The notes under the pieces were generated by a model, which saw only the letters and a list, made by a program, of their open reading frames with translations, was not told where the DNA came from and ran no database searches. This document shows, piece by piece, positions 27,498 through 37,541 of a DNA stretch of 50,069 nt (positions within the stretch are counted from its first letter, which is position 1; the number at the start of each line of letters is the position of its first letter). The position numbers and the translations under genes were made by a program. This DNA is from a virus (taxonomy: Duplodnaviria > Heunggongvirae > Uroviricota > Caudoviricetes), in the IMG/VR virus record IMGVR_UViG_641522650_000006; one strand, 5' to 3'.

Positions 27498-27505
27498 ATA
27501 CGATA
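27498..27505. repeat. 8-bp target-site duplication ATACGATA; partner is its reverse complement at 33500-33507
   Basis: Read directly at the outer flank of the left composite and the inner flank of the right composite. Confidence 0.7.
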
Positions 27506-27635
27506 GTAAGGCAGTATGACTTTCCGTGAGACAGATGCTGGCCAACGTGGGATATTTAACGCGGGTTAACATCGTTGTCAGAGCCGCATGGGTGAGCTGT
27601 TGCTACACCCCGGTATTTCCACCACGGAGGCCAGC

Positions 27636-28763
27636 ATGAACAACAATAACACATTGTACGTCGGGTTAGATGTTCACAAAGAATCGATTACTGTCGCTTA
27701 TGCTATCAATTCAGAACCTGTTGAACTGATGGGTAAAATTGGCACATCACCTACTGATATTCAGAATCTTTGTAAACGTCTCAGGTCAAAGTCATCGCAG
27801 GTCAGTATCGTTTATGAAGCGGGGCCCTGTGGTTATGGACTTTATCGTCGGCTGGTGAAATCCGGTTTTGACTGCATGGTCTGCGCCCCCTCACTTATCT
27901 CGAAAAAACCGGGGGAGCGGGTTAAAACCGATCGCCGTGATGCCATCAGACTTGTGCGTTCACTGCGTGCAGGAGATCTTTCTGCTGTCTACGTACCCGG
28001 CATTGAAGATGAGGCATTCCGGGATTTGGCCCGGGCATGGGCATCTGCCCGCGATGATTTACGGCATGCAAGGCAACGTCTGAAATCGTTTCTTCTGGTT
28101 CATGGGGTCCATTATGTCGGGCGAGCAGATTGGGGCCCTGCACACCGACGCTGGCTCAGCAAATACTCATTCGAAAGTCCCTGGCGACAATTAGCTTTTG
28201 ACGAACACCGTCGTACAATAGAAGACCGGCAGGCACAATGTGAACGGCTGGAATCCGCCCTGAAGGAGGCCGTTACCGAATGGAGGCTGTATCCGGTAGT
28301 AGAGGCGCTGCAAGCCATGCGAGGGATTCAGTTTATTACTGCGGTTGGATTAATTTCTGAACTGGGTGATCTGACCCGTTTTGAACATCCACGACAACTG
28401 ATGTCATGGTTTGGTATCACGCCATCAGAATATTCATCGGGTGGAAGCAGACATCAGGGCAGCATTACCAAAGCCGGAAACAGCTATGCCAGAAAGCTAT
28501 TGGTCGAGGCAGCGTGGAGTTACCGTCATCCGGCACGCATCAGTCCGGCAATACAAAAAAGGCAGGAAAATTTACCCCGCCCCGTCATTGACAGAGCATG
28601 GGATGCTCAACTCAGGCTTTGTAAGAGGTATCGAAAACTTCAGGCCAAAGGAAAGAATGTCAATATTACAATTGTTGCTGTTGCACGTGAGCTGGCGGGT
28701 TTTATCTGGGATATGGGCCGAATAGCAATGTCTGTCGCACAACAACCACAATGTCACAAATAA
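27636..28763 (+). CDS. IS110-family DEDD transposase/recombinase
   Basis: LYVGLDVHKESITVAYA N-terminal motif and C-terminal ITAVGLISELGDLTRF...KAGNSYARKLL; GGAGG RBS 5 nt upstream. Confidence 0.85.
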   Translation: MNNNNTLYVGLDVHKESITVAYAINSEPVELMGKIGTSPTDIQNLCKRLRSKSSQVSIVYEAGPCGYGLYRRLVKSGFDCMVCAPSLISKKPGERVKTDRRDAIRLVRSLRAGDLSAVYVPGIEDEAFRDLARAWASARDDLRHARQRLKSFLLVHGVHYVGRADWGPAHRRWLSKYSFESPWRQLAFDEHRRTIEDRQAQCERLESALKEAVTEWRLYPVVEALQAMRGIQFITAVGLISELGDLTRFEHPRQLMSWFGITPSEYSSGGSRHQGSITKAGNSYARKLLVEAAWSYRHPARISPAIQKRQENLPRPVIDRAWDAQLRLCKRYRKLQAKGKNVNITIVAVARELAGFIWDMGRIAMSVAQQPQCHK

Positions 28764-29028
28764 AAAATGAGAATAACCAGTTCCCTGAAGGCGACGTAGC
28801 CCGGTACAAGAGTAACCCACGTTAGCGCTTGGCGACGGCGGAACAAAGCTGATTCGCGACGTAAGAAAGTGGCAGGCTCATATGACGGACCTCTGTAATG
28901 CGGTATCCAACCCGCGAATATCAGCGTGATTCACCGTCGGATTTACTGCTACGTCGCCCTCAGGGAATTAAACCTAAAAAGAAAATCGTCAAAATTAGAG
29001 ATTCCGGTTTGACACGGAAAGTCATATC
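28764..29028 (+). ncRNA. candidate structured ncRNA (bridge/seek-RNA-like) in the IS110-family 3' end
   Basis: 20-bp inverted repeat TTCCCTGAAGGCGACGTAGC / GCTACGTCGCCCTCAGGGAA enclosing ~140 nt; internal GTAAG, GGCAG, TATGAC motifs match the insertion junction. Confidence 0.35.
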
Positions 29029-29055
29029 AGCGTCAACGGAGCACCGTATTGACGC

Positions 29056-35983: not shown

Positions 35984-36010
35984 GCGTCAATACGGTGCTC
36001 CGTTGACGCT

Positions 36011-37530
36011 GATATGACTTTCCGTGTCAAACCGGAATCTCTAATTTTGACGATTTTCTTTTTAGGTTTAATTCCCTGAGGGCGACGTAGCAGTAAATCC
36101 GACGGTGAATCACGCTGATATTCGCGGGTTGGATACCGCATTACAGAGGTCCGTCATATGAGCCTGCCACTTTCTTACGTCGCGAATCAGCTTTGTTCCG
36201 CCGTCGCCAAGCGCTAACGTGGGTTACTCTTGTACCGGGCTACGTCGCCTTCAGGGAACTGGTTATTCTCATTTTTTATTTGTGACATTGTGGTTGTTGT
36301 GCGACAGACATTGCTATTCGGCCCATATCCCAGATAAAACCCGCCAGCTCACGTGCAACAGCAACAATTGTAATATTGACATTCTTTCCTTTGGCCTGAA
36401 GTTTTCGATACCTCTTACAAAGCCTGAGTTGAGCATCCCATGCTCTGTCAATGACGGGGCGGGGTAAATTTTCCTGCCTTTTTTGTATTGCCGGACTGAT
36501 GCGTGCCGGATGACGGTAACTCCACGCTGCCTCGACCAATAGCTTTCTGGCATAGCTGTTTCCGGCTTTGGTAATGCTGCCCTGATGTCTGCTTCCACCC
36601 GATGAATATTCTGATGGCGTGATACCAAACCATGACATCAGTTGTCGTGGATGTTCAAAACGGGTCAGATCACCCAGTTCAGAAATTAATCCAACCGCAG
36701 TAATAAACTGAATCCCTCGCATGGCTTGCAGCGCCTCTACTACCGGATACAGCCTCCATTCGGTAACGGCCTCCTTCAGGGCGGATTCCAGCCGTTCACA
36801 TTGTGCCTGCCGGTCTTCTATTGTACGACGGTGTTCGTCAAAAGCTAATTGTCGCCAGGGACTTTCGAATGAGTATTTGCTGAGCCAGCGTCGGTGTGCA
36901 GGGCCCCAATCTGCTCGCCCGACATAATGGACCCCATGAACCAGAAGAAACGATTTCAGACGTTGCCTTGCATGCCGTAAATCATCGCGGGCAGATGCCC
37001 ATGCCCGGGCCAAATCCCGGAATGCCTCATCTTCAATGCCGGGTACGTAGACAGCAGAAAGATCTCCTGCACGCAGTGAACGCACAAGTCTGATGGCATC
37101 ACGGCGATCGGTTTTAACCCGCTCCCCCGGTTTTTTCGGGATAAGTGAGGGGGCGCAGACCATGCAGTCAAAACCGGATTTCACCAGCCGACGATAAAGT
37201 CCATAACCACAGGGCCCCGCTTCATAAACGATACTGACCTGCGATGACTTTGACCTGAGACGTTTACAAAGATTCTGAATATCAGTAGGTGATGTGCCAA
37301 TTTTACCCATCAGTTCAACAGGTTCTGAATTGATAGCATAAGCGACAGTAATCGATTCTTTGTGAACATCTAACCCGACGTACAATGTGTTATTGTTGTT
37401 CATGCTGGCCTCCGTGGTGGAAATACCGGGGTGTAGCAACAGCTCACCCATGCGGCTCTGACAACGATGTTAACCCGCGTTAAATATCCCACGTTGGCCA
37501 GCATCTGTCTCACGGAAAGTCATACTGCCT
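36011..37530 (-). mobile_element. IS110-family element, second copy
   Basis: Mirror image of 27509-29028; one amino-acid difference in the transposase (S vs P). Confidence 0.75.
36276..37403 (-). CDS. IS110-family DEDD transposase/recombinase
   Basis: Same protein as 27636-28763. Confidence 0.85.
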   Translation of the reverse strand: MNNNNTLYVGLDVHKESITVAYAINSEPVELMGKIGTSPTDIQNLCKRLRSKSSQVSIVYEAGPCGYGLYRRLVKSGFDCMVCAPSLIPKKPGERVKTDRRDAIRLVRSLRAGDLSAVYVPGIEDEAFRDLARAWASARDDLRHARQRLKSFLLVHGVHYVGRADWGPAHRRWLSKYSFESPWRQLAFDEHRRTIEDRQAQCERLESALKEAVTEWRLYPVVEALQAMRGIQFITAVGLISELGDLTRFEHPRQLMSWFGITPSEYSSGGSRHQGSITKAGNSYARKLLVEAAWSYRHPARISPAIQKRQENLPRPVIDRAWDAQLRLCKRYRKLQAKGKNVNITIVAVARELAGFIWDMGRIAMSVAQQPQCHK

Positions 37531-37533
37531 TAC

Positions 37534-37541
37534 GTTTCCTG
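37534..37541. repeat. 8-bp target-site duplication GTTTCCTG; partner is its reverse complement at 32799-32806
   Basis: Read directly at the outer flank of the right composite and the inner flank of the left composite. Confidence 0.7.

Follow-up and report, generated by a model that had tools for sequence, protein, structure and literature searches.

A standard mark by which an IS-mediated inversion is recognised is the exchange of target duplications between inverted IS copies. Other mobile elements may serve as landing sites: IS4321 and IS5075, elements of the IS110/IS1111 family, target inverted repeats and are found in the terminal repeats of the Tn21 family. Han et al. are said to have shown in 2001 that IS679, of the IS66 family, gives only simple insertions with 8-bp duplications. 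IS-flanked structural variants are well documented in Shigella (PMC8092226), and 8-bp repeats are recorded for IS66-family members (PMC3281130). For IS26 and Tn4401, He et al. (2015) argued for one-step intramolecular replicative transposition, which they preferred to a second insertion followed by inversion (PMC4471558). Our search of the literature on the IS66-family mechanism found no paper documenting a replicative pathway, and a literature search for the locus described here found no description of its inversion.

The window, that is, the whole stretch of DNA analysed, comprises 50,069 nucleotides and matches CP001063 (Shigella boydii CDC 3083-94) in register, including the two SNPs that are private to this strain, which identifies this record as the source. 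A first-pass annotation, made from the sequence alone, had placed two inverted IS66-family composites face to face across 709 bp (32799-33507). The repeat-finder coordinates agree: there are two inverted-repeat pairs, 27506-30348 with 34691-37533 (2843 nt) and 31607-32798 with 33508-34699 (1192 nt), and their inner ends are separated by 709 nt. The left copy measures 5293 bp (27506-32798) and the right copy 4026 bp (33508-37533). The gap of 1267 bp is accounted for by an IS600-like element of 1264 bp and its 3-bp duplication ACC; with this element taken out, the two copies are mismatched at 2 of 4026 positions. The assignment of the composites to the IS66 family stood, and two components have to be added to it: ISSso6 in one terminal repeat of each copy, and IS600 in the left copy only. 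The features of the two arms and their borders are as follows.

27498-27505, plus strand: ATACGATA, outer half of target duplication 1, on the lysis/TonB-like side; in native order about 150 bp upstream of cosN
27506-32798, minus strand: left composite with IS66-family genes tnpA (32293-32712), tnpB (31946-32296) and tnpC, split into 31595-31915 and 29056-30375
27510-29029, plus strand: left ISSso6 (IS110 family) in the IS66 right terminal repeat; transposase ORF 27588-28763
30344-31607, minus strand: IS600-like element of the IS3 family, 1264 bp, interrupting tnpC in the left copy only
30341-30343 and 31608-31610: 3-bp duplication ACC around the IS600-like element
32799-32806: CAGGAAAC, inner half of target duplication 2
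33500-33507: TATCGTAT, inner half of target duplication 1
33508-37533, plus strand: right composite, IS66 family, with tnpA (33594-34013), tnpB (34010-34360) and an intact tnpC (34391-35983)
36010-37529: right ISSso6; transposase 36276-37451 on the minus strand
37530-37533: IS66 tip TTAC of the right composite
37534-37541, plus strand: GTTTCCTG, outer half of target duplication 2, at nu1 codons ~126-128
27900 (T) and 37139 (C): SNP between the arms
30293 (C) and 34746 (T): SNP between the arms

The 8-mers flanking the two copies have the sequences and positions claimed for them in the first-pass annotation. Each inner 8-mer is the exact reverse complement of the outer 8-mer on the opposite side, and by this reciprocal pairing each copy holds one half of two different 8-bp duplications, again as claimed. 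A chance origin of the pairing is ruled out: the probability of a double reciprocal match is ~2e-10 at equal base frequencies, and the 8-mers are rare, each occurring 2-4 times in the 50-kb window with both strands counted. An Rfam gathering scan of the window gave zero hits within 27498-37541.

The centre and the DNA beyond the right copy contain cosN, then nu1, then the large terminase gene, the arrangement of a lambda-type cos/Nu1 packaging module. The 12-nt cosN was located by the phage lambda consensus.

32799-33507, minus strand: inverted central segment of 709 bp, ending in CAGGAAAC (32799-32806) and TATCGTAT (33500-33507)
32799-33183, minus strand: nu1 codons 1-128 (Pfam Phage_Nu1)
33367-33378, minus strand: cosN, GGGCGGCGACCT, 12 nt
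37534-37666, plus strand: 3' part of nu1 in native orientation, overlapping the start of the large terminase gene
37638-39566, plus strand: large terminase gene

The plus strand thus holds the last 125 nt of nu1 together with the large terminase gene, and the minus strand cosN and the 5' part of nu1. We reversed the rearrangement in silico by joining 26698-27497, the reverse complement of 32799-33507, and 37542-38341 (2309 nt). With the centre reversed and both copies removed, the 169-codon nu1 is open again. Over its full 2309 nt, the reconstruction aligns without a gap and with 21 mismatches (99.1% identity) with the uninterrupted prophage in E. coli ARS-C301 (L002), the aligned span covering a TonB-like gene, a ylcI-like gene, and the small and large subunits of terminase. 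ARS-C301 and two other records match it full-length in one piece. In ARS-C301, ATACGATA and GTTTCCTG occur once each, at their two sites. Given that the reconstruction is collinear with an IS-free relative in which each 8-mer is single, the centre is inverted with respect to the ancestral order and the 8-mers are target duplications. The first-pass annotation had described cos and the 5' part of nu1 as flipped, and had pointed to related prophages lacking the insertions as a means of checking this; the centre is in the opposite orientation in the prophage compared here, and the restored nu1 and ungapped collinearity bear the description out. Taken together, the comparison shows that cos and the 5' part of nu1 have really been inverted, and that this was IS-mediated.

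The proteins encoded by the arms are TnpA (HTH_Tnp_1), TnpB (TnpB_IS66), a TnpC of 530 residues and an IS110-family transposase of 391 residues (Pfam assignments). All four IS66 domains are present in TnpC, namely DDE_Tnp_IS66 and the zf-IS66, LZ and C-terminal domains. A tnpA/tnpB/tnpC set, an 8-bp target duplication and imperfect terminal inverted repeats place the element in the IS66 family; its reconstituted right repeat (IRR) matches the left repeat (IRL) at 20 of 25 positions. The element is without a specific ISfinder name in the RefSeq annotation, and its nearest E. coli relatives without ISSso6 are 92-95% identical. The exact TnpC occurs in 302 blocks of the collection, with several copies per genome. 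At two other loci (L001 and L012), the composite is flanked by ordinary direct 8-bp duplications, TATTGGTA and GTTGGGGA. The IS600-like element of the left copy ends in TGAGG...CCTCA and belongs to the IS3 family by its two overlapping ORFs (HTH_Tnp_1 and rve), TG...CA ends, 3-bp duplication and length of ~1.26 kb; the name IS600 comes from E. coli matches only, through the RefSeq annotation of near-identical copies.

The second IS nested in the arms, ISSso6, encodes a transposase with the Pfam domains DEDD_Tnp_IS110 and Transposase_20, as expected of the IS110 family; its name is taken from the RefSeq annotation of an E. coli copy with 99.7-100% DNA identity. We set its boundaries by comparing intact and interrupted IRRs, which leaves a single T ambiguous at the junction. 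The intact right repeat is GCTCCGTTGACGCTTAC (5 copies), and the interrupted form is GACGCT[GATATGAC...ACTGCC]TTAC (13 copies). In the window, the left ISSso6 leaves the IS66 tip GTAA at 27506-27509, and this 4-nt tip puts the insertion ~4 bp from the IS66 end. There is one insertion point for ISSso6 in 13 IRRs and 2 IRLs, and 13 of the 18 right-end repeats examined carry it, always in the same position and orientation. As a separate observation, ISSso6 targets the IS66 repeat tip GTAAGCGT with a strong bias to the right end. One idea was that ISSso6 is a constant part of this IS66 variant, in which case the composite would have to move as one piece; copies with an identical TnpC and an intact right repeat rule this out.

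The whole structure, or the centre with its IS ends, is absent from 5,426 complete E. coli genomes, where the matches are IS copies or IS-free prophages only. Records of an ORF that fuses nu1 to the IS (32764-33183, minus strand) come from eight sequences, namely three complete chromosomes and five short draft contigs. The ORF across the other inner junction (33345-33569, minus strand), which we looked up in search of single-insertion strains, had no match on record. CP026762 and CP026867 share with CP001063 the inner junctions, the terminase-side junction and the direction in which the centre points; in CP026867 the TonB-side flank is gone, lost to another IS, and IS600 is absent. Four of the draft contigs (816-903 bp) consist of the 709-bp centre and 54-99 nt of IS end on each side. 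They prove the presence of two inverted IS ends and show that short reads stop at this point. An un-inverted intermediate or a native orientation was found in none of the three complete genomes, and the eight fusion-bearing contigs are either doubly inserted or too short to tell.

The position of IS600 is informative about the history of the arms and gives indirect evidence of flipping. CP001063 and CP026762 are identical in the IS600 nucleotide position, its orientation and the ACC duplication, and the element lies in the TonB-side arm of the former and the terminase-side arm of the latter, with the orientation of the centre unchanged. A lone crossover can shift IS600 only by flipping the centre as well, so there must have been crossovers on either side of the element, either as two flips or as one reciprocal patch exchange. 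Homologous recombination has thus exchanged DNA between the arms at least twice; in principle, an assembly error in one record, or an independent insertion at the same site, could give the same picture. The two SNPs that distinguish the arms are each private to one arm of CDC 3083-94; the other strains lack them at those positions.

Is the recorded orientation trustworthy, and could it be a programmed state? The junction strings are the same whichever way the centre points, the IS end followed by CAGGAAAC... being the reverse complement of ...GTTTCCTG followed by the IS end. Therefore, short reads cannot orient the centre, and its orientation is readable only from linkage across 1.2 kb or more (to IS600 or its neighbouring SNP) or across 4-5 kb (to the outer flanks). 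The first-pass annotation had named a collapse of the mirrored arms to one copy as an artefact that would undo its reading. This is ruled out: the arms differ by IS600 and two SNPs, and short-read draft contigs have an IS end to either side of the centre. Since each of its arms has marks of its own, the record does not derive from collapsed repeats. It is a different matter whether the orientation is fixed, as the 2008 assembly may have joined the arms arbitrarily, or one orientation may have been picked from a mixed culture. Besides the junction strings, this reading can draw on the draft short-read assemblies, which leave the centre isolated on contigs of 816-903 bp, and on the IS600 arm, which differs between two assemblies. 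We consider it improbable, given that, reassuringly, three independent complete assemblies agree and that the arms in the window are marked by IS600 and the two private SNPs, one of them 394 bp from the outer flank. A programmed invertible switch, in which a site-specific invertase or the ISSso6 recombinase would control the packaging genes, is effectively refuted. A short segment between inverted repeats resembles such a system, but only superficially, as each 'repeat' here is an entire IS composite of 4 kb, complete with target duplications. Pfam assignments reveal zero invertase genes, the ORFs of the arms being all transposase or accessory; in and around the segment, ORFs are of the transposase type only, where a Hin/Gin/Fim-type switch would have a dedicated invertase and short recombination sites. 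Local junctions are the same both ways and nu1 is disrupted, so nothing is switched.

How the second copy and the inversion arose is a harder question. The first-pass annotation had proposed two independent insertions followed by recombination between the copies, and we consider two insertions in opposite orientations, then homologous recombination between the copies, the probable course of events. An IS66-family element, abundant in Shigella and making 8-bp duplications, would have entered a lambdoid S. boydii prophage twice and in opposite orientations, once at ATACGATA upstream of cos and once at GTTTCCTG within nu1, 701 bp apart. The two copies would then have formed a near-identical inverted repeat of ~4 kb, and host homologous recombination between them, presumably by a RecA-type agent, would have inverted the DNA between the crossover points. 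As a result, each copy would be left with one half of each duplication, and cos and the 5' part of nu1 would be directed away from the terminase genes. The arms have gone on recombining, so that what is now seen would be one position of a recombinational flip-flop and not a single frozen event. Simple IS66 insertions with 8-bp repeats are seen directly at L001 and L012, in support of two insertions, and, with the element present in high copy number in Shigella, it could plausibly have hit dispensable prophage DNA more than once. Insertions are tolerated in prophage DNA, and the route asks for no behaviour that is not already known of IS66 elements. Two points count against two insertions: the sites lie just 701 bp from each other, as would suit a local event, and the genomes and contigs above show no intermediate. 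While an IS-mediated inversion and recombination between the arms (from IS600) hold, the swapped duplications are not specific to the proposed route, because one intramolecular replicative transposition gives the identical four junctions. In such a one-step duplicative inversion, a single resident copy, at either site, would have transposed replicatively into a target on its own molecule, 701 bp away, and later homologous exchange would have moved IS600. The second, inverted copy, the inversion of cos and nu1', and the splitting of the old and new 8-bp duplications would all arise at once. This scheme predicts exactly the four junctions seen, and a short distance with inverted orientation is its typical product. 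It also accommodates the virtual identity of the arms (the 2 SNPs occur in just one arm of a single strain) and the fact that no relative with a single insertion or the native orientation was found among three complete chromosomes and five draft contigs. We nonetheless regard it as unlikely, if worth serious attention: the literature found documents no replicative pathway for the IS66 family, ISSso6, if already in the right terminal repeat, might make that end unusable, and homologous exchange between the arms makes an extra one-step mechanism unnecessary. That the second copy and the inversion came from one replicative transposition of the 4-kb IS66::ISSso6 composite is, in our view, doubtful. 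Since the arms keep flipping, the present orientation has no memory of the first event, and sequence alone cannot decide between these routes. If the composite did move in one step, this would be the first indication of replicative strand transfer in the IS66 family, by an element that works though the 1.5-kb ISSso6 separates one of its repeat tips.

In both orientations, nu1 is interrupted at codons 126-128 and 4-5 kb of IS DNA parts cos from the late operon and the terminase genes. Because nu1 is still interrupted, the prophage is unable to package its DNA in either orientation. It follows that there is no functional switch: the flip is without evident function, and it is a matter of prophage decay, not a regulatory device. 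With nu1 split and cos isolated between IS arms, the prophage can be marked as packaging-dead, and the locus as one at which any assembly from short reads has to break and even finished records may be at odds. It provides a clean, fully reconstructable case of IS-driven decay of a lambda-like prophage in Shigella, in which the IS600 marker points to continuing recombination between the arms. Only two angles are mildly novel: how elements of the IS66 family transpose, and the specificity with which ISSso6 targets a repeat.

Compared with known systems, the locus is a fresh instance of an ordinary rearrangement. It shares with the classic inversions between IS copies the inverted IS pair, the unlike 8-mers that pair reciprocally, the collinearity of an IS-free relative after reversal, and the sign of further exchange between the arms. 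It differs from them in its tiny scale, with 709 bp between 4-kb arms, in the nested make-up of these arms (IS66, ISSso6 and IS600), and in its target, the cos/nu1 packaging region of a prophage. The 'in trans' replicative inversions of IS26 and of Tn4401 and the Tn3 family leave the same four junctions (PMC4471558), whereas the IS66 family found here is not known to transpose replicatively. The element itself resembles IS679, ISEc8 and ISEc23-like members of the IS66 family in the order tnpA-tnpB-tnpC, the 8-bp duplications and the imperfect repeats of ~25 bp starting with GTAAGCG; unlike in these, one terminal repeat is split by ISSso6. Finally, ISSso6 recalls IS4321 and IS5075 in the Tn21-family repeats in being fixed in site and orientation within the repeat of another mobile element, but its target is the IS66-family tip GTAA|GCGT.

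Opposite arms in two strains hold the identical IS600 insertion in tnpC, at positions 30344-31607 of the window and at 7228-8484 of L004, the corresponding locus of CP026762. A T-run in the L004 copy of IS600 is one T shorter than in the window copy, possibly a homopolymer sequencing error. The two arms of the window are separated by two SNPs, at 27900 and 30293, both unique to S. boydii CDC 3083-94 and, in that strain, to its TonB-side arm; relative to all other copies seen, the former is a P to S substitution in the ISSso6 transposase and the latter an H to R substitution in TnpC.

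Two further structures were found in relatives. In CP026867 (L006:14412-16050), another IS3-family element takes the place of the lysis/TonB-side flank adjoining the composite, and approximately 4 kb of lysis genes are absent; several genes in this record appear to be frameshifted. In one draft contig (L011:1-120), IS66-internal sequence is joined directly to the central segment approximately 264 nt in, removing cos. Either this fusion is a variant produced by deletion, or it is a chimera made in assembly.

An Rfam scan of the window returned prophage RNA matches beyond the inversion region:
3406-3522, ALIL frameshift pseudoknot
11477-11662, isrK sRNA and C4 antisense RNA
20414-20660, three tRNA genes
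20739-20928, STnc100 sRNA, following the tRNA genes
The ALIL pseudoknot indicates a further IS3-family element at that position.

The composite also occurs at other loci. In E. coli FDAARGOS_943, an IS66::ISSso6 composite at L012:1501-5526 is flanked by ordinary direct 8-bp duplications (TATTGGTA), and a second one at L001:6001-11550, with ISSso6 at both ends, likewise has direct 8-bp duplications (GTTGGGGA). Either the composite still moves as a unit, or resident IS66 copies have been hit repeatedly by ISSso6.

ISSso6, a member of the IS110 family, is present twice in the window:
27510-29029, ISSso6
36010-37529, ISSso6
Across the window and loci L001, L004-L006, L012-L014, L016, L018 and L019, all ISSso6 insertions share one point and one orientation, interrupting the terminal repeat of the IS66-family element approximately 4 bp from its outer end (GTAA|GCGT). 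Among right-end repeats in the window and comparison loci, 13 contain ISSso6 and five are intact. Only two copies carry ISSso6 in the left-end repeat, and the right end of both is also occupied. ISSso6 is an IS directed at the terminal repeat of another IS. The terminal repeats of the Tn21 family are the target of IS4321/IS5075, and the relationship of ISSso6 to the IS66-family repeat resembles that of IS4321/IS5075 to Tn21.
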